Shown here piece by piece: positions 1,281 through 55,289 of a DNA stretch of 64,000 nt. The translations under genes and the position numbers were made by a program. Under the pieces are notes generated by a model that was not told where the DNA came from, ran no database searches, and saw nothing but the letters and a program-made list of their open reading frames with translations. This stretch comes from a phage: the sequence record PV808484.1; one strand, 5' to 3'. Each line of letters opens with the position of its first letter. Within the stretch, counting starts at the first letter, position 1.

Positions 1281-3017
1281 TTAGTTTACCAGTTTATTTA
1301 TGTCTGGTAAAAGATTTATTTCACCTAAGAAATCACCTTCACCTTCCTCTAGCCAACTCTCATATGCTTGTGCATGATTATAGTTACCATCAAAAGAATC
1401 TGCAACAAATTTTTCTACAGTTTTTCGAGATGTGCCAGCGCCAAATACACCAAGTTTAATACCATTGATCGGTAAAGTGGTGCTTGTGGGTACTTTCTCT
1501 GTTGCAACACGGTTGATATCTATAATCTCCTGTACGGTTGTATTCCATTGTAAGCATTTAACACAACGGGTGTGCGCTACATACAGTAGGTTTCGCTCTG
1601 CCTCTTCCAGTCCTACCCATTCACCAGTCTTTTTATCATAATTGGAAGGAAAATCATTAGCAACAATAACCTGATCCCACTCCAAACCTTTAGATTTGTG
1701 TGCTGTAGTCAATGTGACTTTTGCTGTAGGAGAATTTCTATGCGTTCTAAGTGTATGTGCTATAGTGTTTGCCTTACCAGAAACTACAATGTTTAACAAA
1801 CGTTTAGCATCTGGATCAGCCTCTGCACACTCAACAAATTCATCCCAGTCTGCATAAGGTAATACAGTTTCATGTTTTACTTTCTCAATATCTCCTCTCC
1901 GAAGAGCATTAACACTATCTACCATAGAGATAAAATCCCTGGTATCTACGTTAATAATAATTTCTTCCCCGTCTGCAATACGATCCATTGCCTCCATAAG
2001 CAAGGTTAAATTCTTGCGAAAGATGATAGTGTAAGGCTTTGTATAGTCTACAACATCTGATTTGTAGCTACCTACTACAGTATCAAAGCCTTTACCAACC
2101 AAAGGATGACGCAAAGGTTCTTTATCACTTAAAATCATATTCGCAATGTTTGCCACTTTGGGGCCAAAACGGAAGCAAGCAGTTAATGGAAGTTCTGCCC
2201 CATATGTAGAAGTTTCCTTCATCATATTTTGGCTTCCACGGAACTGGTAGATGCTCTGATATTCGTCTCCCACCACTACTACTTGTTTTGCAGATTTAGC
2301 ATTCCGCAGAATAGACAAGAATGCAGGGTTAACATCCTGGAATTCATCCCCAAAAATAATGTCATAACCAAGATCAGCACCTGATAATTCAAACAATTTT
2401 ACATAGGTGTCATGCGTCATCAAAGTATCTGTGTTAGGATCAATGCGCTCTCGCCACAATTGTTTTGCATACTTAACTACTTCTGTAATTAGTTTGTGTT
2501 CGTTAATACCTTTTCTTTTAATATCTGCAAGATGTACACCAGGAAAATGTTTACGGCTGATAAAAGGATCATCCGAAAATTCAAACTTACCTACGGTTTG
2601 CTTGATCATTAAACCAATCATAGCACGAGTTAAAAGTGTTTTCCCTCGTTTATCAATAAGATTATTAATCTTAAATTTCTTTGCTATCTCGCTACCTGTA
2701 CCTGCAACGTTAACATACTGTCCTTCTGGTCGTGACAGTTTTGCACGTAAACGATGATCCAGGAATTGATAGCAAATGGAATGCAATGTACGGCATTCTA
2801 CATTTGGTGGCATCTTACGCCGTGCTTCTTCTGCCATGCTTTTATTGAAAGCTAAGTAAAGAATGCGATCTTCTGTACTGTTAGCCAGCAAATAAAGTGT
2901 TGACGTTTTGCCTGATCCAGATTTAGCCTGGATAGTTAAAAAGCGATGATCTGGAAAAGCCTCCTTAATAGCTGTTTGCTCTTCTGTTGGAGTAAAACTC
3001 AACTCTTTCTTAGCCAT
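1281..3017 (-). CDS. UvrD/PcrA-family SF1 DNA helicase
   Basis: Walker A AKSGSGKTST, DEFQD, VGDEYQSIYQFRG, TTAHKSKGLEWD; start set at internal ATG with AGAGAGG SD, abutting upstream stop. Confidence 0.8.
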   Translation of the reverse strand: MAKKELSFTPTEEQTAIKEAFPDHRFLTIQAKSGSGKTSTLYLLANSTEDRILYLAFNKSMAEEARRKMPPNVECRTLHSICYQFLDHRLRAKLSRPEGQYVNVAGTGSEIAKKFKINNLIDKRGKTLLTRAMIGLMIKQTVGKFEFSDDPFISRKHFPGVHLADIKRKGINEHKLITEVVKYAKQLWRERIDPNTDTLMTHDTYVKLFELSGADLGYDIIFGDEFQDVNPAFLSILRNAKSAKQVVVVGDEYQSIYQFRGSQNMMKETSTYGAELPLTACFRFGPKVANIANMILSDKEPLRHPLVGKGFDTVVGSYKSDVVDYTKPYTIIFRKNLTLLMEAMDRIADGEEIIINVDTRDFISMVDSVNALRRGDIEKVKHETVLPYADWDEFVECAEADPDAKRLLNIVVSGKANTIAHTLRTHRNSPTAKVTLTTAHKSKGLEWDQVIVANDFPSNYDKKTGEWVGLEEAERNLLYVAHTRCVKCLQWNTTVQEIIDINRVATEKVPTSTTLPINGIKLGVFGAGTSRKTVEKFVADSFDGNYNHAQAYESWLEEGEGDFLGEINLLPDINKLVN

Positions 3018-3018
3018 T

Positions 3019-3495
3019 TCAACCTCTCTTAATTTGTTTAACAAGCATAGGAACAAAATCTCGTTTTAAAATTTGTTCAATAATGTGATCAGGTAGCTGT
3101 TGGAAATTATAATTAAAAGCTACTGTTTCACCTTTAGGTGTTTCTACCCGCACATATAACATGTTGCGAAGTTTATCCACTTGTGCTGTATATTCTAAAC
3201 CACGTAATTGATGCATTGCAAACATCAAATCATCAGTTTCAGTTTGGAATCTATCCCTTGTCTGCATCAAGGATAAGGCAAAAGGTAGATTTTCCCTAAG
3301 AGCCACCTTCTTAGGCACTAGTGAAGGGAAATACTCCCCAATAACTTCCTGTGTAAGCTGAATACACTCTTTTTCAAGCTGGTTTTGTTCCTTGAGTTCA
3401 CAAACACTTTTTTGTAAAGTGTTAACCTCTTTTTGCAAAGCTGCTAGTTGAGCACTTAACTTTCTTTTTTGATTACGACCAAAACGTTTAGACAT
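3019..3495 (-). CDS. hypothetical protein (coiled-coil N-terminus)
   Basis: 158 aa ORF; operon context. Confidence 0.5.
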   Translation of the reverse strand: MSKRFGRNQKRKLSAQLAALQKEVNTLQKSVCELKEQNQLEKECIQLTQEVIGEYFPSLVPKKVALRENLPFALSLMQTRDRFQTETDDLMFAMHQLRGLEYTAQVDKLRNMLYVRVETPKGETVAFNYNFQQLPDHIIEQILKRDFVPMLVKQIKRG

Positions 3496-3503
3496 ATTTC
3501 CCC

Positions 3504-4019
3504 CTAGTAAAACCCCTTAACAATTTGTATTAACTCGGCACAACGGTTGACCAACTTTTCCTCGCACAATACACGTTGTGGCATATGTTGTATAATATAC
3601 TCCATTTGCTCATGCCATGTCCACTTTTCTTTTTTGTCCGGGATAACATCACTAGCACGAGAATTATCTTTTAATGTTTGTATAATCCAATTGCTTGGAA
3701 AGTGCTCTCCACCTTTCTTAAATGGTTTATAGTGTCCTAGAGTGAATTGAGAATCCCCTGTTAGAGCACCCAATTTATTTAGATGGATAATCAAACTACG
3801 AAACACGTAGTATTCATAGATGTTATCCACCGTATAGCAAGCATAATATTTCAAGATGCCCTTATCTCGCGGATACTTACCAACATCCAGATTACACCAG
3901 TTGACATTTTCTGGATCATAGTGGTGTTCCTTAAGCCATATTTCTCTTTCATCAAAGTCTGGATATATTACCGCCCTGCTTACAGAGTCAACAAGTGGAG
4001 ATTGAGCATCAAAAAACAT
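3504..4019 (-). CDS. hypothetical protein
   Basis: 171 aa ORF; operon context. Confidence 0.5.
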   Translation of the reverse strand: MFFDAQSPLVDSVSRAVIYPDFDEREIWLKEHHYDPENVNWCNLDVGKYPRDKGILKYYACYTVDNIYEYYVFRSLIIHLNKLGALTGDSQFTLGHYKPFKKGGEHFPSNWIIQTLKDNSRASDVIPDKKEKWTWHEQMEYIIQHMPQRVLCEEKLVNRCAELIQIVKGFY

Positions 4020-39821: not shown

Positions 39822-40634
39822 TTACTTAGTCAAATGATCTTCTATCATTTTTATGAAAGCAGGATTGCTAAAAGCATCTGCTGCCTTTTCTCTATAAACA
39901 AAGACTCCTCTATCTTCGTAAAGAAGAGTTTCTTCGTAATTAATTCCTGGGTTAACAACAATCATTTTTGTACCCATATTAAGTGCAGGGAATAATTCCC
40001 AATTAAAATTGATAACTTGGTTTGAACATCCTACTACAACAACCAAATCTTGCATGGTCAAAGTATCAAACAAGTGAGCCATATCTGCATACAAAGGTGC
40101 AGCCTCACCAAAAAATACAACATTAGGCTTCACCCAGTTATAATCATCTATGTTTATACTATTGTAACCAATGTCTACCAGTGTTTTGTAATCTCCAGGA
40201 TGCATACGGTAAACTACTTCAGGAAGATACCCGTGCACGTGAATAACAGAATCCCTGTCCACACCTGCTCGCTCTAGTAGATCATCAACGTTTGTTGTCA
40301 AGTTTACTACTTGGTTAGGATATTCCTTAAACCACTTTGCTATTTGAATATGTGCAGCATTAGGTTGTACATCTTTAAGCTCAACACGTCTTTTGTTATA
40401 AAATTCGTGTGTTTTGGCATACAAGTCCATACCGTTCTCGTCTACACCACCGACCACTGGAAGATCTGGAGATGTTCTCACACGATAACCTGCTTGGAAA
40501 GCTCCAATATCGCAGACCTCTTCTAAGTCATATTCTTCCCATAAGGCACGACCACTATCTGTGTCTGTTCGGAACGTTCGAATCCCACTGTCTGCACTTA
40601 AACCTGCGCCACTAACAAAAATTACTCTTCGCAT
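39822..40634 (-). CDS. Sir2-family NAD-dependent protein
   Basis: GAGLSADSGIRTFR, TTNVDDL, VHG motifs; no CxxC zinc module seen. Confidence 0.75.
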   Translation of the reverse strand: MRRVIFVSGAGLSADSGIRTFRTDTDSGRALWEEYDLEEVCDIGAFQAGYRVRTSPDLPVVGGVDENGMDLYAKTHEFYNKRRVELKDVQPNAAHIQIAKWFKEYPNQVVNLTTNVDDLLERAGVDRDSVIHVHGYLPEVVYRMHPGDYKTLVDIGYNSINIDDYNWVKPNVVFFGEAAPLYADMAHLFDTLTMQDLVVVVGCSNQVINFNWELFPALNMGTKMIVVNPGINYEETLLYEDRGVFVYREKAADAFSNPAFIKMIEDHLTK

Positions 40635-40645
40635 TCAATATCCTC

Positions 40646-41176
40646 TTAGTAATCATCATCCCAAGAAGATGCGTCGTAACGCTCTTCCTCTTCGAAATCC
40701 CAATTAATTTCTACTCCAAAATCTAAAAACAATTTAACAATGTTTTCTGTAGAGTAGTATTTATCATAAGCATTAGCTAGTTCCCAATACTTGTCACTCA
40801 ATTTTTTATATTTAGGATCATTATAGTCATAATCTACTTTATAACCATAATCATACATCTCTTGTTCAGCTTTAAGCATAGCTTCTGGTGTAAGAAGATT
40901 AGGGAACGGACGATTTCTTTCTTTTAACTTAGAAGCAATCCAGTTTGCAACATTCGCCACTTCACCATCTCGATTATCACCTAAACAACTTGCATAATCT
41001 CCATCTTCGTAAGTGCCTAAATCCCCACTAACTTCATGTACAATAGACGAATACGATCCACACGTTTCACAATCTGAAAAAGTGTCTACTGTTGTAATAT
41101 CAATAGATAAAACTGGTAAAGCCATAGCTTCTTTCACACAAGCCTCCTCATATAATAACATGTCATCAAAACCCAT
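40646..41176 (-). CDS. hypothetical acidic protein
   Basis: start at internal ATG with GGAGGA SD; acidic C-terminus. Confidence 0.5.
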   Translation of the reverse strand: MGFDDMLLYEEACVKEAMALPVLSIDITTVDTFSDCETCGSYSSIVHEVSGDLGTYEDGDYASCLGDNRDGEVANVANWIASKLKERNRPFPNLLTPEAMLKAEQEMYDYGYKVDYDYNDPKYKKLSDKYWELANAYDKYYSTENIVKLFLDFGVEINWDFEEEERYDASSWDDDY

Positions 41177-41230
41177 ATATCCTCCAGACAAATAAAGCCC
41201 CTGTTTGGGGCTTTGGTTAAGTTTTACGGA

Positions 41231-41842
41231 TTATACCAGACTTTTAAGGTACTTGTCAAGGGCTTCTTGATCACCTTGACAAACATAGCAACGGAAGTCT
41301 TGAGCAGAAGGTTCTTTGTCCTCGTCCCAATCCCAATAGACAGTACCTTTATAGCGTGAGCCTGGGAACTCGAAGTATGCCACATGAGTAATATGGTGTG
41401 GGCCACCCCAAAATTCTGTAAAAGTAAATTGAGGATACGCTGCTTTAACTGTATTTTCAAACCAAGTTTTACGATCTAATGCTTCGTTTATAAAATAAGC
41501 ATGGCGTTCCATTTCATCCCAATCTTTCCAAACGCATTTTTCATCCAGAGAAAAAACAAAATCTTCACTGTTAAAATCGTCTGTATCTGATTCCAAAATA
41601 TCATAATCATGTGCACTAGGTATCCACCATCCAGCTTCTAATAGTGCTTTTGCAGGTACAAAACCTTTTTCAGCATATTGATCAAATTCTTTTACTCTAC
41701 GTACAGTGCAGTATTCATCTTCACCACCAATGTCCAGTAGACAAGCACCTTTGCGTCTTGCTGCAAGACCATGTGTATCAAAAACTACAACACTACCTTC
41801 ACCGTCTTCACGATCTACTTGATATGCAACTTTTTGAGTCAT
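41231..41842 (-). CDS. hypothetical protein
   Basis: 203 aa ORF. Confidence 0.55.
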   Translation of the reverse strand: MTQKVAYQVDREDGEGSVVVFDTHGLAARRKGACLLDIGGEDEYCTVRRVKEFDQYAEKGFVPAKALLEAGWWIPSAHDYDILESDTDDFNSEDFVFSLDEKCVWKDWDEMERHAYFINEALDRKTWFENTVKAAYPQFTFTEFWGGPHHITHVAYFEFPGSRYKGTVYWDWDEDKEPSAQDFRCYVCQGDQEALDKYLKSLV

Positions 41843-41965
41843 ATTACCCCCAATGTATATGGGAAATTAACCAAAAGATAAATTCCCAAAAACACCAACC
41901 AAGAAAAGTTAATGGAATTATAAAGGCTATCAGAGCAGTCTTCCAGCCTTTCCACAATGTTTCCA

Positions 41966-42955
41966 CTATTCCTCCATACATTTAAGAATATGTGCAATGA
42001 CAGGTATAGTCCAACCGTTACCTAACATCTTATATGCTTGTGTGTTACTACTCACTTTAAAGTAATCATCTGGCACACCTTGCAAGCGGCAACACTCTTT
42101 AACCGTTAACTTTCTATAATGTACGCCTTCACTCAATTTTTCAAAGGCATCTAGATATCTTCCAGGTGGAATGTAGGCTAATAGTACGTCTTTAGGCACA
42201 GTCGTGAGGCAACGAGTTTTTTCACTGTCCTGAACTTCCAAACAATGTACCAAACGATCAGTTTTAGATGTACTACGTTTGCCATTTTCATTAATTCTAC
42301 GCCCATATATTGCTGCCGGATAAAAAACCAGTTGTCTGCGACTCTTTTCAAAATACTGTTCTATATTACCACCTTTGGCATAATTTGCATCTATGCAATA
42401 AGCCTTATCTCTGTCTACAATACTATCATCTTCAATGATATCTTGCAACACTTCATTGGTAATCTCCCAGGGTTTTATTTCCCAGTTGCACCAGTATAAA
42501 CGTTGTCTATTCTGTGCCGTGAAATCTGCGGAGTTAATGAATACGGGATCAACACCTAAGTAACTTGTGATCACGTTTTCCCACTCCACTTTCATCTTAA
42601 CGTTTTCAAGCATGAACTTAACATTAGGATTAAACTTTTTAATATGTTCAAGAATTTCAACATATTCGAAGAATAGCTTAGATCGCGGATCTTGAAAGTT
42701 CAAACCCTTACCAGAAGAAGAGAAGCCTTGACACGGACTACCACCTAACAAAAGATCAATTTCTCCCCACGGGATATCCCATTCTCTCCATTTTGTAACA
42801 TCACCTAACTGAATAATATCTGGAAAATTTGCTTGGCTTTCAGCTACGGCAAATTTGTCTAATTCTGAAGCGTAATATGTATCTACTTCAATACCTGCAC
42901 TTTTTAGCGCAAGCATTCCTCCTGACATACCATCAAAAAGACTTAAAACTTTCAT
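41966..42955 (-). CDS. dcm: DNA cytosine-5 methyltransferase
   Basis: LFDGMSGG (motif I), GGSPCQGFS (motif IV), MLENV (motif VI). Confidence 0.85.
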   Translation of the reverse strand: MKVLSLFDGMSGGMLALKSAGIEVDTYYASELDKFAVAESQANFPDIIQLGDVTKWREWDIPWGEIDLLLGGSPCQGFSSSGKGLNFQDPRSKLFFEYVEILEHIKKFNPNVKFMLENVKMKVEWENVITSYLGVDPVFINSADFTAQNRQRLYWCNWEIKPWEITNEVLQDIIEDDSIVDRDKAYCIDANYAKGGNIEQYFEKSRRQLVFYPAAIYGRRINENGKRSTSKTDRLVHCLEVQDSEKTRCLTTVPKDVLLAYIPPGRYLDAFEKLSEGVHYRKLTVKECCRLQGVPDDYFKVSSNTQAYKMLGNGWTIPVIAHILKCMEE

Positions 42956-42957
42956 TA

Positions 42958-43368
42958 TTACTTCTTCTCCTTAACACTAGCTGGTAATTCTGCCTTGAGG
43001 CAGAAGTTTAAACGGTAAGCCTCATTCTCATTTAAAAGTACAGATTCACACGATAACCAGAACAAGAGATCCTCAATACCAGGACTGTTAAGCCAACAGT
43101 GCAGAAGAGAATGTTGTTCTATATCAATGTAATTTAGTAACAAGGCTTGTAAGGCGTAACTAGTTCCTGTCGTTTTTGCTTTTTCAAGGATGATATTGTG
43201 TTTACTAACAACTTTCTTCCTAAGACCAAACCATTTATTAACAACAACAGTCTCTTCTTGTAGTTGTTTTCTTATTTTCTCACATTCTTTAACTACAATC
43301 TGCATCTTATCCACTGCTGATTGAAGTTGTTCTTTTGTTGGGTTTACAAAATAATCACTATAATACAT
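42958..43368 (-). CDS. hypothetical protein
   Basis: 136 aa ORF; GAGGAG SD. Confidence 0.55.
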   Translation of the reverse strand: MYYSDYFVNPTKEQLQSAVDKMQIVVKECEKIRKQLQEETVVVNKWFGLRKKVVSKHNIILEKAKTTGTSYALQALLLNYIDIEQHSLLHCWLNSPGIEDLLFWLSCESVLLNENEAYRLNFCLKAELPASVKEKK

Positions 43369-43394
43369 GCTAAACTCCTCTTCTGTTTTTCTGT

Positions 43395-43423
43395 AGTCTA
43401 TTCGAAAAAACTGGTGTTGTCAA
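43395..43423 (-). promoter_or_regulatory. sigma70-like promoter (minus strand)
   Basis: reverse complement reads TTGACA-17-TAGACT. Confidence 0.4.
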
Positions 43424-43450
43424 CAAAAAACCCGCCGAAGCGGGTTTATA
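43423..43450 (-). terminator. rho-independent terminator
   Basis: minus-strand CCCGC-TTCG-GCGGG followed by TTTTTTG. Confidence 0.65.
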
Positions 43451-43708
43451 TTATTCTACAGGAACTTCTTCACCAAGAGAAACTTCTAAACGGAATGCTT
43501 TACTTTCAATACATTCACTACCTTTTAAGAAATCGAATTGCACTATAGACTGACTTAATAGAATAGATAGAATCACATCGCAATCTTCACTAGGGGCTAG
43601 ATGTTTGTATTCTTCCTTCAAGGTAACATCATAAAAACATAAGTCCCCTACTCCTAGTTCATCCCATCCTTCCCATGCATCTACAAAGTTAAATTCTAAA
43701 CCTTTCAT
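43451..43708 (-). CDS. hypothetical protein
   Basis: 85 aa; GAGGAGG SD. Confidence 0.55.
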   Translation of the reverse strand: MKGLEFNFVDAWEGWDELGVGDLCFYDVTLKEEYKHLAPSEDCDVILSILLSQSIVQFDFLKGSECIESKAFRLEVSLGEEVPVE

Positions 43709-44229
43709 ACAACCTCCTCGTAATCGTTATTGTGTTTTACTGTCTCAACATACAATAAAGATTCCATCTGTAATACATTACCAGAAAGAATAAACCCATA
43801 AGCCATTTCAGATGTGTCTATATCATATGCCCCGTCTTCCGGTTTAGCAAAGTGTAAAACTATTTCATCTGGGTTTTCTGCATCCCATAGTTTAGAAATT
43901 TTCCGAACCAGAATGTTAGCTAAAATAGTTGACATTCGGGATAAAGCTGTATCCTCATATCTTTTAAAACCTAGCCAATAGAGGTTAAGAATTTCTACTT
44001 CTTCTTGTGTTAAGTTTTTGTCTAAAGTAATCAGATCTGTAGAGCACGGCGTTTTTGTTGAACCTACTGTTACAAAACCTGGAGTGTTATGAAAAACAAT
44101 CTTAACTTTATCACGTATAAAGTTTAAACCTTGTGCCTCAACTATATATTGTATTGTAGGTACAATATCGTTTGTTACATCAATAAAACTATCTTTAATG
44201 ACGCTTATATTATTTCTGGACAAGACCAT
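43705..44229 (-). CDS. hypothetical protein
   Basis: 174 aa ORF. Confidence 0.55.
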   Translation of the reverse strand: MVLSRNNISVIKDSFIDVTNDIVPTIQYIVEAQGLNFIRDKVKIVFHNTPGFVTVGSTKTPCSTDLITLDKNLTQEEVEILNLYWLGFKRYEDTALSRMSTILANILVRKISKLWDAENPDEIVLHFAKPEDGAYDIDTSEMAYGFILSGNVLQMESLLYVETVKHNNDYEEVV

Positions 44230-44788
44230 TCTCCTCTAAAATAGGCTTAATAAATTCGAAAATTTGTTTTTTACTTTTACCTCGAATATTAAAACAAGGA
44301 ACATTAAACTTTTTAGCCAACATCCAAGCTGTTCTTGTACCACCTAAAGGATCTCCATTTTTATCTGTATTTGCACAAGCTAAAAGAAAACAAGATGGTT
44401 TTGGATTCTCAAGATCTCTTCCAAGAACTTGGTGGATATTTCTTTGATGTAATTTTTTAGCACCTTGAGATAATCTGTCCCAAGCTGGATGCAATTCTTT
44501 TGCATATTGCAAGGTTAGAGCATAGTTTACACTATCTGGTCTGTCAAGAACAATAACCTCTCCCTCTATTTCATTACCTTTAAACGAGAGCCAAGGGATG
44601 TATATTTCTTTCTTTGTATTGTTCCCACTATCATATACCCCGCATTCAAATGCGGAATCTGCACCTTCTGCTTTACCGGATCGCAAAATGAACCATGTAG
44701 ATAACCATTTTGCAACAGATACCATAGTATCCCATTCTTCGTCTGTAATATCTCTGCTACCAACACCTGTGTAGAATAAATCGCTCAT
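44210..44788 (-). CDS. DprA/Smf-like (SLOG-type Rossmann) domain protein
   Basis: start at internal ATG with AAGGAG SD; YTGVGSR, SGKAEGADSAFECG, GGTRTAWMLAKKFNVPCF resemble DprA motifs. Confidence 0.5.
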   Translation of the reverse strand: MSDLFYTGVGSRDITDEEWDTMVSVAKWLSTWFILRSGKAEGADSAFECGVYDSGNNTKKEIYIPWLSFKGNEIEGEVIVLDRPDSVNYALTLQYAKELHPAWDRLSQGAKKLHQRNIHQVLGRDLENPKPSCFLLACANTDKNGDPLGGTRTAWMLAKKFNVPCFNIRGKSKKQIFEFIKPILEENGLVQK

Positions 44789-44798
44789 GGTTTTCTCC

Positions 44799-45119
44799 TT
44801 AACAAGTAATATTGGGAGTAACAATTGGATTAACAATTGGAGTAATAGGGTACGTAAACCAAGGGCTTCCAATTTCCCAAGGATAATAAGGTCTACGAGG
44901 ATCGTATGGAGGAGTTACTTCAGGCTTTTTCCAAATCTCCGCTAATTGTTTCTTCCATTTATCCCTTGCTGTCTCATTATCTTCATCCAACTGTTCATCA
45001 TTATCTTTTATTTCTGGTTTTGGAAATAAAAGCTCTTTGACTAATTCAACATCTTCCGTCTCAATAGTAGTTTCTTTCGTAAGTTCTCCTACTGTTTCTT
45101 TAATTGTGATTTTATACAT
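44799..45119 (-). CDS. hypothetical Pro-rich protein
   Basis: 106 aa; Pro/Thr-rich C-terminus. Confidence 0.5.
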   Translation of the reverse strand: MYKITIKETVGELTKETTIETEDVELVKELLFPKPEIKDNDEQLDEDNETARDKWKKQLAEIWKKPEVTPPYDPRRPYYPWEIGSPWFTYPITPIVNPIVTPNITC

Positions 45120-45862
45120 TAGTCCTCCTCTAAAGTAGAATAAAATTGTAACGTATTTGAATCATCAAAATATGCAAAGGTTAAATTACCATTGAAGCAA
45201 GATCCTGTGTCCATATATACCCTATTACTGCTAATCACAGGTTTAGGAACATAAGAATGCCCGTGAAATACATAATCTACTCCTGAAACCCTAGGAAGAA
45301 GAATTCCTTCAAGTGCGCAATCTATCATATCACGATCCCACATTAAAGATTCTGTGAATCGAGAAACTTGCTCTTTATTCATATTCAAACAAAATGGCAA
45401 AACTTCTGTCACTGGCAAATGTTCCAAAACTGAAGGATACCCACCGTGAATAAAGCCTAGTTTCATATTACGATAATTGACAACAAGTACAACAGGTAAA
45501 TCTTCTAGCATCAAAGCAAGAGCAGTTGCACCCTCTTCTCCACACTCGTCTAGAACTGTATGGCCTCCGTTCTGAAACCAACATTCGTAATATCGTCTAT
45601 CACCTTCTAGCAACCCTTTAATCATCATATCTTCATGGTTCCCACGAATAGCATAACGATTTAGCTTTCTGGTGAATTCAACAACACAACGAAAATTCTG
45701 CTTGCCGCGATCTGTAAGATCTCCTAAAGATACAACAACATCTTGATCTCGGATACCTAAAGTATTAACACCTTTCTGGTACAAATCAAAGCAACCATGT
45801 AAATCACCAATAATAAACAGGTCTTGATCATCTTTTACACTAATTTCTTGATATACTAACAT
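45119..45862 (-). CDS. Ser/Thr protein phosphatase (calcineurin-like)
   Basis: IIGDLHGC, GDLTDRG, RGNHE metallophosphatase motifs; ATG chosen one codon in from TTG. Confidence 0.75.
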   Translation of the reverse strand: MLVYQEISVKDDQDLFIIGDLHGCFDLYQKGVNTLGIRDQDVVVSLGDLTDRGKQNFRCVVEFTRKLNRYAIRGNHEDMMIKGLLEGDRRYYECWFQNGGHTVLDECGEEGATALALMLEDLPVVLVVNYRNMKLGFIHGGYPSVLEHLPVTEVLPFCLNMNKEQVSRFTESLMWDRDMIDCALEGILLPRVSGVDYVFHGHSYVPKPVISSNRVYMDTGSCFNGNLTFAYFDDSNTLQFYSTLEED

Positions 45863-46188
45863 CAACTCTCCTCAAAATCCATAAGTATAAAGATATTAAC
45901 TTTACCTTCTATATTATGTTCTACAACAAGATCTGCAAATTCTTTGTAGGCTTTTTCTTCTATTTGTTCAATGTGAGACGCTACATCTTTGTATATAGCG
46001 TCACCATCTACTTTAACAAGGAGGAATAGAGATCTTACTTCAATCTCTTTATTTTTACGGGGTAGAAAATCGACGGCTTCTTGTATACGCCAGCCGAGAT
46101 ACCCTGGAGTCCTTTGAATATCCTCCAAATGACTTTCTAAGATTTCCCTTCCTTTGTCTATTAAAGCCTGTTCTGTCGTTATTTTCAT
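45862..46188 (-). CDS. hypothetical protein
   Basis: 108 aa ORF. Confidence 0.55.
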   Translation of the reverse strand: MKITTEQALIDKGREILESHLEDIQRTPGYLGWRIQEAVDFLPRKNKEIEVRSLFLLVKVDGDAIYKDVASHIEQIEEKAYKEFADLVVEHNIEGKVNIFILMDFEES

Positions 46189-46198
46189 CCCCTTCTCC

Positions 46199-46771
46199 TT
46201 AATGTGTTAATGAAACTGCGTAGCTAAACACAGGTTCAGATATTACATCGGCTACAGTAATAAAAACGTCTTCGTCTTGAGTTGTTTCTACACGACATAC
46301 AGTTACACCATTCACCACGAATTCAACGCAATGTGGAATATTTTCACAAACGAAGGTAGTGTAAGTAACACCCAAAGCATCATACAAAGATTTAACAGTG
46401 TTTGCAAGTGCCGCAGTTTCTTCTTTTTCTGAGACAATGAATGCTGTAACAACAAGATTGTTTGCATAGTTTAGACTGTCCTCTATAGCCAATGATTTAC
46501 AAGGTAGTAATGCAAAATATTTACCTGGTTTAATCAGACCTGCTTCCCATTGATTCAAAATTGCCTGGGATGGTTTAGTAATATAAAACAGATTTTCACT
46601 TGGGTTATCAATATTACTTCTGGCGATACAACGTGAAGGATTATTAATATCAAACACATGATCAAAATCTACACAAACAGGTAAACTGAAAGGTGTGAAT
46701 TTTTTACCTAATAATCCTATGGCTGATAATATGTTTGCTGTGCTTATCTTCCCGTTAAAAGCTAAACGCAT
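46199..46771 (-). CDS. hypothetical protein
   Basis: 190 aa ORF. Confidence 0.55.
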   Translation of the reverse strand: MRLAFNGKISTANILSAIGLLGKKFTPFSLPVCVDFDHVFDINNPSRCIARSNIDNPSENLFYITKPSQAILNQWEAGLIKPGKYFALLPCKSLAIEDSLNYANNLVVTAFIVSEKEETAALANTVKSLYDALGVTYTTFVCENIPHCVEFVVNGVTVCRVETTQDEDVFITVADVISEPVFSYAVSLTH

Positions 46772-46782
46772 ATTTAACTCCT

Positions 46783-46986
46783 TTAACTAGCAACCGTAAC
46801 TTCCGAACTTTCTTCTTTCGTACTGTCTACGATATGCCTGGTGGCAATATACGAGACTTGCCAGTTACCATCTGGTGTAGTCTCAATAAGTACCCTATCT
46901 ACTTCGAGAAAATGCAAAAATTCAACCATCGCTCGCTTCGATAGGAATTGTTTTTTAACAGTCTCCTCAAAAGATTGAACTGCCAT
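46783..46986 (-). CDS. hypothetical protein
   Basis: 67 aa; GGAGGAAA SD. Confidence 0.5.
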   Translation of the reverse strand: MAVQSFEETVKKQFLSKRAMVEFLHFLEVDRVLIETTPDGNWQVSYIATRHIVDSTKEESSEVTVAS

Positions 46987-46995
46987 GTTTCCTCC

Positions 46996-47658
46996 TTATT
47001 TAATATTCAATTTTGCACAAAGACGTTGTACCGCTTTGGCATCGAACAAACTCCCACGAATAGTTCTCTTTCCTGATTCATTCAGATGCTTTGCAATCGT
47101 CATATATGGCGTTTTACAAGCTCTGTATGCAACTAAAGAATCTTTTAAAGAAAGCGCAAACTCTCTTGAGCGTTTTGCTTCTTCCGTTTTCGTATAATCT
47201 GTTCTTTTGTATTTAGGGTTTGCTGCACCAAGAAGCGTTCCCTTCGCTTTTGCTACCTTAAGGCTCTTCTTAACACGATCAGATATTGCACGAGCCTCTT
47301 CTTCTGCCAGAACTGCTAAAATATTTATTATCATATTTTCAGCGGAGGGCATAGTTGCTATTCGTACATTAATCATCTCTAACAAGGTTGCAACAGAAGC
47401 TGTGTTACGTCCAAGACGGTCAACCTTAGCAACAACAAGTGTAGCACCTGTTTCTTTGCAAAGATTAACAGCTTTTACAAGCTCTCTACGTTGCTTCCAA
47501 TCGCCTTTACCCGAATAAAACTCTGCAAAGCTACCTACAATAGTATAATTTTCTTGTGAATCCAGGAAGCGTTGAATATCTGCTTCCTGTGATTCTATAC
47601 CATACTGGTTGCCTTGTTGTTTCTTCTTAGAAAGTCGATGATATAGTACAAACTTCAT
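46996..47658 (-). CDS. serine recombinase (resolvase/invertase family)
   Basis: N-terminal YHRLSKKKQ with catalytic Ser, VAKVDRLGRN, C-terminal HTH-like segment; GGAGGG SD. Confidence 0.8.
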   Translation of the reverse strand: MKFVLYHRLSKKKQQGNQYGIESQEADIQRFLDSQENYTIVGSFAEFYSGKGDWKQRRELVKAVNLCKETGATLVVAKVDRLGRNTASVATLLEMINVRIATMPSAENMIINILAVLAEEEARAISDRVKKSLKVAKAKGTLLGAANPKYKRTDYTKTEEAKRSREFALSLKDSLVAYRACKTPYMTIAKHLNESGKRTIRGSLFDAKAVQRLCAKLNIK

Positions 47659-47715
47659 AATACCCTCCTGTTCTGTTACAGGAAGTATGCACTACCTTAA
47701 TGTTAAAGTCAACAG

Positions 47716-47919
47716 TTAAGTAGTGGTAATATCATCCTCTTGAATACCAGGGTCAACTTCTGCAAAGATAGCCTCTACAGGAATTTCTTCACCTGCTATT
47801 CTAGAAAGAAGCACTGAACCAATAGCTTTTGCGTGTTCTTCGGATTCCGCATAAACATTAGTTCCTGTGTCTTTTTTCTTAGTTTCGTTAAAATATACCA
47901 GATAGTAATTGTATGCCAT
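47716..47919 (-). CDS. hypothetical protein
   Basis: 67 aa ORF. Confidence 0.45.
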   Translation of the reverse strand: MAYNYYLVYFNETKKKDTGTNVYAESEEHAKAIGSVLLSRIAGEEIPVEAIFAEVDPGIQEDDITTT

Positions 47920-48170
47920 TATTCATCCCAATCGTTGTTACGAGCACTTTCAAGAACCTTGACAACTTCTGCATACTCTACAGCTAAACCAGCACACACT
48001 TCAGCTTGTTTTGCAATTGCTTGTTTAAAGAACATAGCGATTGCAACACTCTGTGTTGTGTGAATGTTATCTGCTTTAGTTGATACATGAAGATCAAAAT
48101 CTTCTTCATCAAAGGTGAGTTCCATAGTAACAATAAATTTCTCGGTCATAAAAATGCTCCTCTTAAACAA
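47919..48170 (-). CDS. hypothetical protein
   Basis: 83 aa ORF. Confidence 0.5.
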   Translation of the reverse strand: MFKRSIFMTEKFIVTMELTFDEEDFDLHVSTKADNIHTTQSVAIAMFFKQAIAKQAEVCAGLAVEYAEVVKVLESARNNDWDE

Positions 48171-48672
48171 AATAGAAAGGTTGAGTTAAACCCAGCCTGT
48201 TTTTTGGGTCGTAGACGTACCAAGCATATGCTGTCTTATCAGTACCACCTGCAACAAAAGATGGTCGTTCAGAAAGAACAATCAAATTTGTTGGTGGATT
48301 CTGTTTATGGAATTCCCTTCGTTTAATAGACTCTAGGAACCCAAGACGCAACAAGTATATGCAAACGTCTGCTTCTTTTAAGCTCTTTTGCAAGAACTCA
48401 AGTGCAAGTTTGAATGGGGGATTTGTGATTATAATATCCGGCTTAGTATGCCATTCGTGGTTAAAATAATCTTTCCCTTCTTCTAACTCACAATATTCTG
48501 ATCCTTCTGGAAAATGTTGATAAATTGCAGCAGCAGCGCCTTTACACGGTTCTGCAAAAATAAAACCTTCTTCTTTAAGGTTATTAAAATCTATTACACT
48601 AAATAATGCATTTATACATTTTTGTGGAGTAGGATAGTAATCAGTTGGTGGACGATCATACTTATTTGCCAC
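48163..48672 (-). CDS. small DNA N6-adenine methyltransferase (probable GTG start)
   Basis: DYYPTP and IIITNPPF motifs; GAGGAG SD. Confidence 0.6.
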   Translation of the reverse strand: MANKYDRPPTDYYPTPQKCINALFSVIDFNNLKEEGFIFAEPCKGAAAAIYQHFPEGSEYCELEEGKDYFNHEWHTKPDIIITNPPFKLALEFLQKSLKEADVCIYLLRLGFLESIKRREFHKQNPPTNLIVLSERPSFVAGGTDKTAYAWYVYDPKNRLGLTQPFYFV

Positions 48673-49090
48673 TACTTAAAATCTCCTCTTTTGTGATTTC
48701 AGGGTCTTCTTCAAAAACCATAATATCTCTTAAGAACGTTAATTCTTCCATAGATACTGGTATTGTATCTTCTTCTGTTTTTCGTTTACATAAATCGTCA
48801 AGAAAGTTTTTAAAGTTTTCTGACAAGTCGTAAAATTTCAACAGTTGATAATCACAGGAGGAGATCCTATCTAGTTCTAACATTCTTTCTAAGATATTTT
48901 CTGTGTTGCCGTACAACACACGAACTTCTCCGAAAGGGTTGACTAAATATTGTGAAGTTCTGAACCATCCCTTTTTAGATACAGTGTAACGCTGTTCTGC
49001 TAAACTTTCAATAAAATTTTTAGCTCTTTTACAGTTTTGTTCTAAAGAGTAGTAGGCTTTTTCTACAAAGTTTACAGGTACTGGTAACAT
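48662..49090 (-). CDS. hypothetical protein
   Basis: 142 aa; AGGAGGAG SD. Confidence 0.55.
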   Translation of the reverse strand: MLPVPVNFVEKAYYSLEQNCKRAKNFIESLAEQRYTVSKKGWFRTSQYLVNPFGEVRVLYGNTENILERMLELDRISSCDYQLLKFYDLSENFKNFLDDLCKRKTEEDTIPVSMEELTFLRDIMVFEEDPEITKEEILSSGK

Positions 49091-49105
49091 ATCTCCTCCT
49101 AATAA

Positions 49106-49120
49106 CCCCCCTTGAGGGGG
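49106..49120 (-). terminator. intergenic hairpin abutting RBS
   Basis: CCCCC-CTTGA-GGGGG directly 5' of AGGAGG SD. Confidence 0.4.
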
Positions 49121-49131
49121 TTTATACTAGA

Positions 49132-49785
49132 TTAATTATCAGAGGACACTTTATCAAGTTTTTCAGAGACTGTCAATACTTTTTCTTGTGATTCTTTCAT
49201 TTCTGCTAAAATACTTTCAGCTTCATCACTATCAGGATCACCAGTCAACAGCATACTAATTAGTTGCTCCTTGCTGAAGTTCAGAATATCTTCCGCTGTT
49301 AACTCCAGTTGTTCTTCGATCTCTTCGATAAAAGTTTCACCGCCTGAAAAAGCATCTCGCAGTTTTGCAACTTCCATCGCTTCTTCTGGGGTTGCCCCAG
49401 CGTCTAAAGCTGCTAAAGCAAAATCTGCCCCACTACCCACAGCATAATAATCTTCAGTTAAAGGATATGCTCGCGTTGGATTATTACCCTCGTGCATATA
49501 AATTTTACCGTCTGGGTGAACAACCAATGCCACAAACTCTTCATCTTCTTTATCAGGATCTGACTGGATCACCAAACCTGGGATTGTCTCTTGTGCTGCT
49601 TGGCATTGTAAGTTTTGTTCGAACCAAGAAAAGAAAGTCAGGATAGAAGACAGACGTCCTGCACCACCAACAAGGTAATCCCCAATTTTACGCACTTTCT
49701 TGAAATTTAAAGTGTCTACACGACTACCTACTGTTACCTTACCGTCAGACAGAATTTTGTTACGTGTTGCAATAATTGTTGTCAT
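49132..49785 (-). CDS. HslV/proteasome beta-like Ntn peptidase
   Basis: N-terminal MTTIIATR, DGKVTVG, KVRKIGDYLVGGAG, AVGSGADFALAA align with HslV blocks. Confidence 0.65.
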   Translation of the reverse strand: MTTIIATRNKILSDGKVTVGSRVDTLNFKKVRKIGDYLVGGAGRLSSILTFFSWFEQNLQCQAAQETIPGLVIQSDPDKEDEEFVALVVHPDGKIYMHEGNNPTRAYPLTEDYYAVGSGADFALAALDAGATPEEAMEVAKLRDAFSGGETFIEEIEEQLELTAEDILNFSKEQLISMLLTGDPDSDEAESILAEMKESQEKVLTVSEKLDKVSSDN

Positions 49786-52027: not shown

Positions 52028-52858
52028 TCACTCCTTGTTTAAAAGTATAGTTAAAGTTCTTACAATACCGCTATCAACACTTCGCGGATTTAAAGTAGGA
52101 TCTGTTTTTAAATAAGATGTTGCTGGTCTGACTGCTTTGGAATTATAGGTTGAAGCAGACACAGGATTAACTGTAACAGATAAATCTATAACAAGAAATA
52201 TCTTTCGTGCAAAATCATACCAAGAAATATAATCTGCACCTGCATAGTGTACAATTTTACTATTTACACCATCTTTTACAAGTTTAAAAATTGTTTCTGC
52301 AAGATCAGGTGCATAAGTAGGACATGATAAATGATCACATACTACATTAAATTCTTTTTGACCACCGTTGTAGCGTTCCAACATAGTTTTCAAAAAGTTA
52401 TGTCCAAATTCACTATAAACAGAAGCTGTTCTGATAATAAGTGCTGTAGGACAAACTGTTTGTACTAAAGTTTCACCTAATTGTTTACTGTAACCGTAGG
52501 TGTTCAAGGGGTTTGTTTTACTATCTTCTGTGCCAGCAACATGCCCATCAAAAACATAGTCTGTTGAAATATGTACAAACTGTATCAGTAAATCATTACA
52601 TGCTTTGGCAATGTTTGTTGCACCGTATGCATTAACATTTATACAGGTGTTAACATCTTCTTCAGCTTTATCTACTGCCGTGTAAGCCGCACAATTCACA
52701 ACAACATCAGGCACATGCTGTACAAGACTATTCATAACATCTTTAAAGTTGGTAATGTCTATATCACTTGCTTCAATCAAAACAACATCTTCTGGTGCAA
52801 CTTTTGCCAAAGATTGTCCTAATTGACCTTTTGATCCAAAGACTAAAAATTTTGTCAA
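52028..52858 (-). CDS. rmlD: dTDP-4-dehydrorhamnose reductase (probable TTG start)
   Basis: N-terminal FGSKGQLGQ Rossmann motif; typical RmlD length; AAGGAG SD. Confidence 0.8.
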   Translation of the reverse strand: MTKFLVFGSKGQLGQSLAKVAPEDVVLIEASDIDITNFKDVMNSLVQHVPDVVVNCAAYTAVDKAEEDVNTCINVNAYGATNIAKACNDLLIQFVHISTDYVFDGHVAGTEDSKTNPLNTYGYSKQLGETLVQTVCPTALIIRTASVYSEFGHNFLKTMLERYNGGQKEFNVVCDHLSCPTYAPDLAETIFKLVKDGVNSKIVHYAGADYISWYDFARKIFLVIDLSVTVNPVSASTYNSKAVRPATSYLKTDPTLNPRSVDSGIVRTLTILLNKE

Positions 52859-53409
52859 AGTATGATCTCCTTTAGTGTTTTTGCTTCCTGATCTTTTTGT
52901 GACAAGATAGGTTTAAAATTAATATCATTAAAGATTAAATCAAAACCCCAATCTATATTGATATCTGGATCATTCCACGCAAGACTACATTCTGAAGTCG
53001 GATCGTAATATTCTGTACATTTATATTCAAAATCAGCAATATCGCTAATCACAACAAAGCCATGAGCGAAACCAGGAGGAATCCAAAATTGTGTTTTATT
53101 CTTTTCAGATAAGAGAACACCTACCCATTCTCCAAATGTTGGACTACCAACCCTAATATCTACAGCAACATCATAAACTTCACCACGAACACAGCGTACT
53201 AACTTCCCTTGTGGGTTTTTCTTTTGAAAATGAAGCCCACGTAGAACTCCTCGGATAGAACGTGAATGGTTATCTTGGACAAAGTTTTGTTTACCTATGT
53301 ATTGATCATATAAAGCCTGATTAAAACTTTCTAAGAAAAAGCCACGTTCATCTCCGTAAACGTCAGGTTGAATGATCAACAAATCTTCGATTTTTGTTGC
53401 TTGAATCAT
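52855..53409 (-). CDS. rmlC: dTDP-4-dehydrorhamnose 3,5-epimerase
   Basis: GDERGFFLESF, RGLHFQ and cupin-type motifs. Confidence 0.85.
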   Translation of the reverse strand: MIQATKIEDLLIIQPDVYGDERGFFLESFNQALYDQYIGKQNFVQDNHSRSIRGVLRGLHFQKKNPQGKLVRCVRGEVYDVAVDIRVGSPTFGEWVGVLLSEKNKTQFWIPPGFAHGFVVISDIADFEYKCTEYYDPTSECSLAWNDPDINIDWGFDLIFNDINFKPILSQKDQEAKTLKEIIL

Positions 53410-53421
53410 TTAATTCCCCTT

Positions 53422-54291
53422 TTATTTTAATTTAAGTAAATACTTACCGTAGTCTGTTTTACTTAAAACCTCTCCAGAACTTTTTACAGAGTCTAAAGTA
53501 ATCCATTCATTTTTAAAAGCAATCTCTTCCAGGCATGCAACCTTCATACCTTGTTGCTTCTCTATTGCATGAACAAATTGAGATGCTTCCATAAGACTTT
53601 CATGTGTTCCTGTATCCAGCCAAGTGAAACCTCTTCCTAGCTTACAGACACGTAAAGCCTTTTCTTTCCAGTACATCTCATTTATATCTGTGATCTCTAA
53701 CTCCCCTCTAGCAGAAGGCTTAACGCTTTTAGCTTTCTGTATAACAGAATTATCGTAAAAGTACAAGCCTGTAATTGCATAGTTGCTTTTTGGTGCTTTT
53801 GGTTTTTCTTCAATACTTACTACTGTACCTTCAGAATCAAACTCAACAACACCAAATCTTTCAGGATCATTTACGTGATACCCAAAAATATTAGCTCCAC
53901 CATTCTTTTCAATATGTTCTCTAGCAGAATCTAAAATGCTACCAAAACTCTGACCAAAGAATAAATTATCACCTAGAACAAGTGCTACAGAATCTTCACC
54001 AATAAAGCTCTCACCAATAATAAACGCTTCTGCTAAACCTTTTGGGCTGTCCTGTATTGCATACTGTAGGGAAACACCAAAAGAAGAACCATCACCTAGA
54101 AGATTTACAAAATTAATTTGATCTTCTGGTGTTGTAATTATTAGTATTTCCCTAATTCCAGAAAGCATTAGGACAGAGAGTGGATAATAAATCATAGGTT
54201 TATCGTAAATTGGTAATAGTTGTTTACTAACCCCTTTAGTAACTGGGTAAAGTCTTGTCCCACTACCACCCGCTAAGATAATACCTTTCAT
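53422..54291 (-). CDS. rmlA: glucose-1-phosphate thymidylyltransferase
   Basis: [18 protein letters not shown]...[16 protein letters not shown]. Confidence 0.9.
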
Positions 54292-54299
54292 ACTCCTCC

Positions 54300-55289
54300 T
54301 TAAACTTTATTTTCCCACCACTCTTTGTTATCTACATACCAATCAATGGTTGAATAAAGTTTTTCTTCAAATGTGCCTTTAGCTTTCCACCCTAATTCCT
54401 TTTCAATCTTATAAGGATTCACTTCATATCTTAAATCATGCCCAGGTCTATCTGTAACCATCTCAATGAGGCTACAAGCATCTGTTTCAGATGGATATAC
54501 CGCATCCATATAATCACAAATCATATAGATTACATCAATATTAGTTCTAGGGTTTCTGCTCCCAATATTATATGTCTCTCCAGATTTGCCTTTAGTTACT
54601 ACCAGGTGTAATGCTTCTGCGTGATCATCAACGTATAGCCAATCTCTTACTTGAAGACCATCGCCATAAACAGGGATTGGTTTATTCATTAAGATATTTG
54701 TTATCGTCTTAGGTATTAGTTTTTCTGGATGATGATATGCTCCAAAATTATTTGAACAATTTGTTATAACTGTCGGAATACCATAAGTACGATGCCACGC
54801 TCTTACCAAATGATCGCTTGCAGCTTTAGATGCAGCATATGGACTACTTGGTTTATAAGGATTCTGTTCTGTAAACGGATAATCCCCTTCTTCCATATCA
54901 CCATACACTTCATCTGTTGAAATATGATGGAACATTTTAAGATTTGATTTATCTCCCATTAAACGAACAGCTTCTAGAAGATTAAATGTTCCAACAATAT
55001 TTGAATTTATAAAAACACTCGGTGATGCTATTGAATTATCTACGTGACTCTCTGCTGCAAGATGCATTATATAATCTGGATTAACATCTGCCACAATCTT
55101 AGCAGTTAACTGCGCATTTGTCAAGTCAACACGACAAAACTTTACATTAGGTGTTTCTGATAAATTTCTAGGGTCTGAAGCGTAACCCCATTTATCTATA
55201 ACGTAAATATCATTCTTAGTATTTTTAGCTAGGAAACGAACTACCGCACTTCCAATAAAGCCTAAACCACCTGTTACTAAGTATTTCAT
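54300..55289 (-). CDS. rmlB: dTDP-glucose 4,6-dehydratase
   Basis: TGGLGFIGS Rossmann motif, YAASKAASD catalytic YxxxK. Confidence 0.9.

Follow-up and report, generated by a model that had tools for sequence, protein, structure and literature searches.

The 64,000-nucleotide stretch of phage DNA analyzed here (record PV808484.1; hereafter the window, whose position x is position x + 64000 of the record) carries genes for two methyltransferases, a C5-cytosine enzyme of 329 amino acids and a small adenine-N6-type enzyme of 169 amino acids. The window derives from a Justusliebigvirus (phi92-like) coliphage of the Stephanstirmvirinae: the interval 41000-49200, which holds both genes, matches Escherichia phage EmilieFrey (BASEL Bas61, MZ501063) with 99.3% identity along its entire length and is 98-99% identical to phi92 and about 50 further Justusliebigvirus genomes. 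We propose, with a probability of about 60%, that both genes encode active orphan S-adenosylmethionine-dependent DNA methyltransferases of this virulent phage, which would methylate replicating phage DNA at short sequence motifs. The analysis demonstrates gene identity, intact catalytic motifs, fold, the lack of a detectable nuclease partner and distribution, whereas we infer that the small enzyme acts on DNA, when the genes are expressed and what biological role they have.

The open reading frame (ORF) of the C5 enzyme spans exactly 41966-42955 on the minus strand, and its product matches PF00145 over model positions 1-322 of 324 (E 1.7e-43; 149.8 bits, cutoff 22) and TIGR00675 with 142 bits (cutoff 100.65). 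Its catalytic motif set is complete, comprising F7-D-G-M-S-G-G (motif I), P74-C75-Q76 with the catalytic Cys (IV), E117-N-V (VI), Q148-N-R-Q-R152 (VIII) and G312-N-G-W (X), and these motifs align with those of DNMT3A. The nearest relatives in the PDB are the catalytic domains of DNMT3A/3B (1.5e-23), followed by M.HhaI and M.HaeIII (1e-22). With this group of PF00145 enzymes the phage protein shares a length class of 327-331 amino acids, the ten-motif layout and the catalytic Cys within PCQ, but it differs in the variable target-recognition region (approximately residues 160-275), which aligned with no solved enzyme; alignment to the PDB relatives is limited to the conserved N- and C-terminal blocks. 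Judged by its sequence, the ORF is a full-length canonical C5 cytosine DNA methyltransferase, as originally predicted. The label "Dcm-type" that came with that prediction holds for the C5 superfamily but not as a statement of orthology. The CCWGG-specific model NF007772 reaches 30 bits (cutoff 710), matches the C-terminal 50 residues only, and has 472 positions versus the 329 residues of the phage enzyme; orthology with Escherichia coli Dcm was therefore rejected.

The ORF of the small enzyme likewise occupies exactly 48163-48672 on the minus strand. Its GTG start appears credible because a GAGGAG Shine-Dalgarno sequence lies approximately 10 nucleotides upstream and because homologs start at the same residue. 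The protein matched no Pfam or NCBIfam model at E <= 0.01 and no PDB sequence, and it missed the gathering thresholds of the gamma-class models (N6_Mtase PF02384, Eco57I PF07669 and TaqI-like); its only database matches were phrog_799 and a short PADLOC segment around NPPF. None of the 225 homologs recovered in a word-indexed search has a Pfam domain, and an exhaustive profile search with the family yielded 13,897 representative clusters (at 50% identity), nearly all of 160-220 amino acids, with matches of family members to Pfam being sub-threshold and limited to the NPPF segment. Positions that are invariant or nearly so in 56 aligned homologs are D11-x-Y13-x-T15-P16, F39-x-E41-P42-C43-x-G45, E62, D79-x-I-x-T-N84-P-P-F87 and R136-P-x-F139. 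The motifs of the phage protein are thus Y13-P-T15-P16 (X), E41-P-C-K-G45 (I) and N84-P-P-F87 (IV), and their order, X-I-IV with (D/N)PP(Y/F), is that of gamma-type amino-methyltransferases; in the family the same three motifs align with those of StySJI HsdM. Some homologs carry a Cys4 zinc-ribbon insert directly after RPxF (alignment columns ~190-226), which may be a replacement nucleic-acid-binding element in a family that has no recognition domain.

An AlphaFold model of the small enzyme, built with a homolog alignment as input, consists of a single Rossmann domain (predicted local distance difference test score, pLDDT, 90.4; predicted template modeling score, pTM, 0.87). Foldseek ranked lmo1582, M.TaqI and CamA first, followed by PH1948 and KsgA/Dim1, and the structural neighbors include the DNA enzymes TaqI, BseCI and CamA as well as MmeI, which aligns over 159 of the 169 residues, and HsdM, which aligns over 156. 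Because the motif order, the confident model and the fold neighbors agree, the predicted assignment of the protein as an adenine-N6-type amino-methyltransferase core is well supported with respect to chemistry, and the small N6A-type methyltransferase of the original prediction is borne out to this extent. Compared with the gamma-class cores of M.TaqI, MmeI, M.BseCI, CamA and Type I HsdM, the enzyme is without their target-recognition and N-terminal helical domains: the model contains neither as a separate domain, and no HsdS-like gene lies nearby.

The modeled fold alone would not separate a DNA from an RNA substrate. An alternative is that the small enzyme is an RNA adenine-N6 methyltransferase acting on ribosomal RNA (rRNA) or transfer RNA (tRNA), of the METTL5/PH1948 type, that tunes translation during infection. 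We regard this as unlikely. Although PH1948 appears among the structural neighbors, M.TaqI and CamA stand above it in the ranking, and DNA enzymes score nearly equally and align over more residues. The leading PDB sequence-profile match of the family is Type I HsdM, which runs through motifs X, I and IV but is weak (E 0.008), whereas the METTL5 and PH1948 rRNA N6-methyladenosine (m6A) methyltransferases reach an E of only 0.15. METTL5 also requires the partner TRMT112, no equivalent of which is evident. Among the longer family members, most sub-threshold Pfam matches are to Eco57I, EcoRI_methylase and phage Dam (PF05869).

Genomic context leans toward DNA as well. We sampled 56 loci from diverse bacteria, called the nearest ORFs and scanned 150 of them. 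Recurrent neighbors were Phage_GPA (8), REP_ORF2-G2P (5), helicases, DUF3987 and DUF2800, and C5 DNA methylases adjoin small-family members in 4 of the 56 loci. No recurrent restriction nuclease and nothing ribosome- or tRNA-related was found among the neighbors in this sample. Bacterial homologs therefore sit in prophage DNA-replication modules beside GPA initiators and C5 DNA methylases and never beside translation genes, so that the surroundings of the family are those of DNA replication rather than of translation. A K139-like Vibrio prophage carries a clear member of the family, and the HP1 dam gene occupies the same position as small-family members do in prophage replication modules. Taken together, the HsdM profile match, the DNA-methylase names of the sub-threshold Pfam matches and the prophage replication-module context favor a DNA substrate for the small enzyme; support for adenine-N6 methylation of DNA as such comes only from genomic context and database names.

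The likeness to HP1-type phage Dam proteins (PF05869) extends beyond position. These are stand-alone adenine methylases of approximately 170 amino acids encoded after a replication gene in P2/HP1-like prophages, as is the small family, and both have a D-x-(W/Y)-x-T-P ... N-P-P-(Y/F) skeleton. However, HP1 Dam is without the EPCxG motif I that is present in the 169-residue enzyme. The window protein does not match PF05869, a few relatives do so below the cutoff (E 4e-4 to 2e-2), and an HHalign comparison with HP1 Dam (orf13) gave a probability of 34% and an E of 4e-4, which is too weak for claiming a common family.

Evidence on orphan status comes from the surrounding genes. Searches of the 10 unassigned ORFs between and around the two methyltransferase genes against Pfam, PHROGs and PADLOC returned no nuclease family, although divergent nucleases can evade such detection, and the Bas61 annotation contains no restriction enzyme. 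No cognate endonuclease was found beside either methyltransferase, so that neither gene qualifies as part of a Type II restriction-modification (RM) system. Within the reach of sequence methods, the predicted absence of a recognizable nuclease nearby therefore holds, and the orphan status of both enzymes is supported. A scan of motifs and profiles found no further methyltransferase in the window, but over the whole genome it gave a total of two adenine-type enzymes and one C5 enzyme, the additional one being the beta-class protein bas61_0037 (Table 1). This third enzyme had been missed in the original prediction, as had the palindrome avoidance described below and the names that both genes already carry in GenBank.

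One of the methyltransferases could nevertheless be the modification half of a cryptic phage RM or host-DNA-degradation module whose nuclease is an adjacent ORF. The ORFs of 136, 203 and 142 amino acids that flank or overlap the methyltransferase genes have no assignable function, and detection with hidden Markov models often misses Type II nucleases. Even so, we consider this explanation highly improbable, because the searches above returned no nuclease signal, no nuclease recurs beside family members in the bacterial loci, and the flanking genes do not travel with the methyltransferases. Homologs of the 136-residue ORF are present in Phapecoctavirus phages that lack the C5 methyltransferase, and the 203-residue ORF is 68% identical to phAPEC8_0074. 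Because both flanking genes are kept in Phapecoctavirus phages lacking the C5 enzyme, the C5 gene is an isolated insertion that brought no partner along; the two ORFs are backbone genes, and the 136-residue ORF is not a methyltransferase partner. The 142-residue ORF occurs in 134 phage records compared with 501 for the small methyltransferase and is therefore not its obligate partner; given the overlap of the two genes, translational coupling is possible. A hidden nuclease partner among the flanking ORFs was rejected on the grounds that these ORFs are distributed independently of the methyltransferases.

What the enzymes can protect against is constrained by published plating data. Adenine methylation inside the recognition site stops each of the enzymes EcoRI, EcoRV and EcoP1. 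Bas61 nevertheless gave zero plaques on EcoRI, EcoRV or EcoP1 hosts (PMC8594841 raw data). The same study counts 70, 100 and 114 sites, respectively, on both strands, and our own counts for the Bas61 genome agree (35 GAATTC, 50 GATATC and 114 AGACC/GGTCT). In experiment 1 of those raw data, the vector control gave 2.7e7 plaque-forming units (pfu), compared with 3e6 for EcoKI (an approximately 10-fold reduction), 2.7e7 for EcoCFT_I and 8e6 for EcoCFT_II. The strain on which the BASEL phages were isolated lacks McrA, McrBC and Mrr. Because EcoRI, EcoRV and EcoP1 are sensitive to adenine methylation yet restrict Bas61 fully, no adenine methyltransferase of the phage is promiscuously protective, and the small enzyme without a recognition domain must therefore be sequence-selective or weakly active. 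It follows from the plating failure that any protection is narrow and limited to specific motifs, and general anti-restriction is provided by neither enzyme. The proposal of anti-restriction self-methylation is thus only partly supported; it is the conventional expectation for such genes, limited here by the plating data.

The evasion strategy that is visible in this genome is extreme restriction-site avoidance, which concerns the window as well as the whole Bas61 genome. The 146.7-kilobase (kb) Bas61 genome lacks 23 of the 64 six-base palindromes altogether, among them AAGCTT (0 observed, 45 expected), CTGCAG (0/32), GGTACC (0/22) and GGATCC (0/20), and GGCC, CATG, CCGG and CTAG reach only 0.4-0.6 of their expected counts. 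The EcoRI and EcoRV sites are not avoided, which fits the published sensitivity to these enzymes. GATC and GCGC show no depletion (observed/expected 1.03 and 1.10). The hexamers that contain them are mixed, with GGATCC, CGATCG and AGCGCT absent and TGATCA, AGATCT and TGCGCA present, and inference of a recognition motif from word statistics was therefore rejected, since none could be assigned.

The two genes differ in their distribution. At an identity of at least 95%, the C5 gene is found in 55 records, all of them phi92-like genomes, and its next relatives are approximately 50% identical and belong to unrelated phages (ICP1, jumbo coliphages, GAP32, K64-1 and a Pseudoalteromonas phage). The gene is patchily distributed and is a genus-specific, horizontal acquisition of a single gene, which fits an arms-race, or defensive, role. 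The corresponding slot in Phapecoctavirus, syntenic with window 41966-42955, holds phAPEC8_0075, a protein of 227 amino acids with no Pfam match. Encoded at 2880-3563 of the compared phAPEC8 stretch, it shows a weak alignment (E 0.002) to the N-terminal half of the C5 enzyme, including the motifs VLSMFDGSG (I), PPC (IV) and IEN (VI). This protein could be a C5-type enzyme that has diverged or been truncated, in the place of which Justusliebigvirus carries the canonical one. Similarly, the rV5-like Pectobacterium phage CB7 (Certrevirus) has one N6-adenine and one C5 methylase, as here, but its C5-like protein is detectable by HHpred only, unlike the canonical enzyme of the window (PMC7344957), and is probably a short divergent form like that of phAPEC8.

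By contrast, the small enzyme occurs in its 501 phage records across the whole rV5-like supergroup (Justusliebigvirus, Phapecoctavirus and Vequintavirus), including rV5-like relatives that infect Cronobacter, Klebsiella, Salmonella and Pectobacterium. Such a core distribution equally fits a conserved role in phage DNA metabolism and hints at a non-defensive one. It is accordingly possible, if doubtful, that the methyltransferases, and especially the small one, serve mainly phage physiology, such as replication timing, packaging, gene regulation or the distinction between phage and host DNA. Dam, for example, acts at the pac site of phage P1. The presence of the small enzyme throughout the supergroup and in several host genera is unlike that of patchy arms-race genes, and it also resides in prophage replication modules; its carriers are highly sensitive to RM systems, and many Type II enzymes are already evaded through site avoidance. 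On the other hand, no site, nuclease or regulator that depends on methylation came to light, the patchy, horizontally acquired C5 gene is better explained by defense, and the six RM systems used for plating leave room for narrow protection. There is also a small but real chance that the family of the small enzyme as a whole (about 14,000 clusters) is not concerned with anti-restriction but with a conserved replication or packaging step, or with m6A on translation components of host or phage. This would account for its core status in rV5-like phages that are still restriction-sensitive.

Our preferred reading remains that of two active orphan DNA methyltransferases, and we envisage their action as follows. 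Both genes would be transcribed from host-type promoters inside the large block of early and DNA-metabolism genes that is read leftward. The C5 enzyme, with a target-recognition region of normal size, would generate 5-methylcytosine by the classic covalent mechanism through Cys75 and would most plausibly confer narrow protection from Type II/III enzymes whose sites overlap its motif. The small enzyme would be a stripped-down gamma-type adenine-N6 core (YPTP, EPCxG, NPPF) of selective specificity or low activity, not a promiscuous adenine methylase, and may provide either narrow protection or a housekeeping function in replication or packaging, the latter being considered because the gene is core to all rV5-like phages.

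Consensus scanning places a promoter-like site, preceded by a terminator-like hairpin, before a predicted unit that runs from the 136-residue ORF through the C5 gene and an ORF of 45 amino acids to the 203-residue ORF, where a second hairpin would close it; another promoter-like site lies upstream of the 142-residue ORF and the small gene (Table 1). However, the total number of promoter-like matches is not above that of shuffled controls, and the promoters and terminators around both genes are therefore suggestions only. In favor of the preferred reading, the CB7 enzyme pair goes with a ClaI digestion pattern that was read by the authors as adenine methylation (PMC7344957), although host Dam could be an alternative cause of this pattern. 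Apart from this indirect indication, we found no methylome in the literature for phi92-like, BASEL or rV5-like phages or for the K139 enzyme.

The entire block from approximately 39.8 kb to the window end is transcribed leftward and encodes early and DNA-metabolism functions, including Sir2, a DprA-like protein, a NinI-like phosphatase, a serine recombinase, an HslV-like peptidase, PhoH, endolysin, dTDP-sugar (deoxythymidine diphosphate-sugar) genes and NrdAB. A maximum of the cumulative GC skew at approximately 40 kb coincides with the switch from rightward small early genes to this block. Elsewhere in the genome, the Bas61 annotation lists further NAD-related genes (NAMPT, PRPP synthetase and a macrodomain protein), which together with Sir2 suggest a phage NAD+ (nicotinamide adenine dinucleotide) metabolism or counter-defense. 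The serine recombinase gene of this virulent phage sits between the two methyltransferase genes, and two short ORFs labeled as aminoacyl-tRNA-synthetase-like are much too small for synthetases. A complete dTDP-rhamnose pathway lies inside the block; DNA glycosylation by this pathway was proposed by Olsen et al., and the BASEL study found no restriction resistance attributable to it. Campylobacter phage C3 (GenBank MG065656) and similar "Campylobacter phage" records of approximately 146 kb show at least 97% protein identity to these E. coli phages and are probably mislabeled or contaminant entries.

Table 1. Methyltransferase genes, neighboring ORFs and predicted signals (window coordinates unless another record is given)
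Feature	Position	Strand	Evidence or remark
Orphan C5-cytosine DNA methyltransferase (predicted), 329 aa	41966-42955	-	ortholog of bas61_0190 / Phi92_gp043
Minimal adenine-N6-type amino-methyltransferase without target-recognition domain (predicted), 169 aa	48163-48672	-	bas61_0203; DNA substrate favored from context
136-aa ORF directly upstream of C5 gene, probably co-transcribed	42958-43368	-	phrog_16551; no Pfam/PADLOC match
203-aa ORF downstream of C5 gene	41231-41842	-	phrog_8514; no Pfam/PADLOC match
142-aa ORF, stop codon overlapping start of small methyltransferase	48662-49090	-	phrog_15078; no Pfam/PADLOC match
Third methyltransferase bas61_0037, outside the window	MZ501063 35999-36730	-	beta-class PF01555, E 1.9e-30; DPPY at residue 27; annotated "Dam-like"
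Terminator-like hairpin	43447-43428	-	consensus scan: 8-bp stem, 5 GC pairs, T-run
Sigma70-like promoter (predicted)	43423-43395	-	TTGACA-17-TAGACT, 10/12
Terminator-like hairpin closing the C5 unit (predicted)	41214-41194	-	AAAGCCCC-loop-GGGGCTTT + T-run
Sigma70-like promoter (predicted), upstream of 142-aa ORF and small methyltransferase	49176-49148	-	TTGACA-17-TAAAGT, extended TG, 10/12
Sir2-family protein	39822-40634	-	PF02146, E 1.3e-22
Serine recombinase / DNA invertase	46996-47658	-	PF00239, E 8e-22
Short ORFs labeled aminoacyl-tRNA-synthetase-like	46199-46771 and 40646-41191	-	phrog_4806 "histidyl tRNA synthetase", E 2.7e-60; weak PhetRS_B1 match
Complete dTDP-rhamnose pathway	~52028-55289 (record 116028-119289)	-	inside DNA-metabolism block

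Orphan methyltransferases are common in phages, and the two described here are named in dozens of GenBank records. In Bas61 they are annotated as "Dcm-like C5 cytosine methyltransferase" and "putative N6 adenine methyltransferase", with similar names in many relatives, and identical or at least 95% identical named proteins are deposited for Bas61 (bas61_0190 and bas61_0203), phi92 (gp043) and approximately 55 other Justusliebigvirus genomes. For this genus, published papers already enumerate several orphan methyltransferases and suggest an anti-restriction function (PMC12210895; bioRxiv 10.1101/2020.01.19.911818), and orphan phage DNA methyltransferases are the subject of the review by Murphy et al. 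2013, as cited in PMC12210895. Like the known examples, those of the window are stand-alone C5 and adenine enzymes of a lytic phage with no nuclease partner, and no difference at the gene level sets them apart. Since public genomes carried both genes under these names before, the observation holds but is an ordinary one, and both methyltransferases were already known. Their annotation nevertheless calls for correction: "Dcm" is a superfamily label only, the small gene owes its "N6A DNA" label to motif and fold rather than to a curated family or experiment, and "anti-restriction" is overstated because the published plating shows that the phage is not made restriction-resistant. Bas61 is a tractable model phage in which the recognition motifs of the three enzymes would be simple to determine, and knowledge of these motifs would give a function to a very large family of methyltransferases that lacks a Pfam model.

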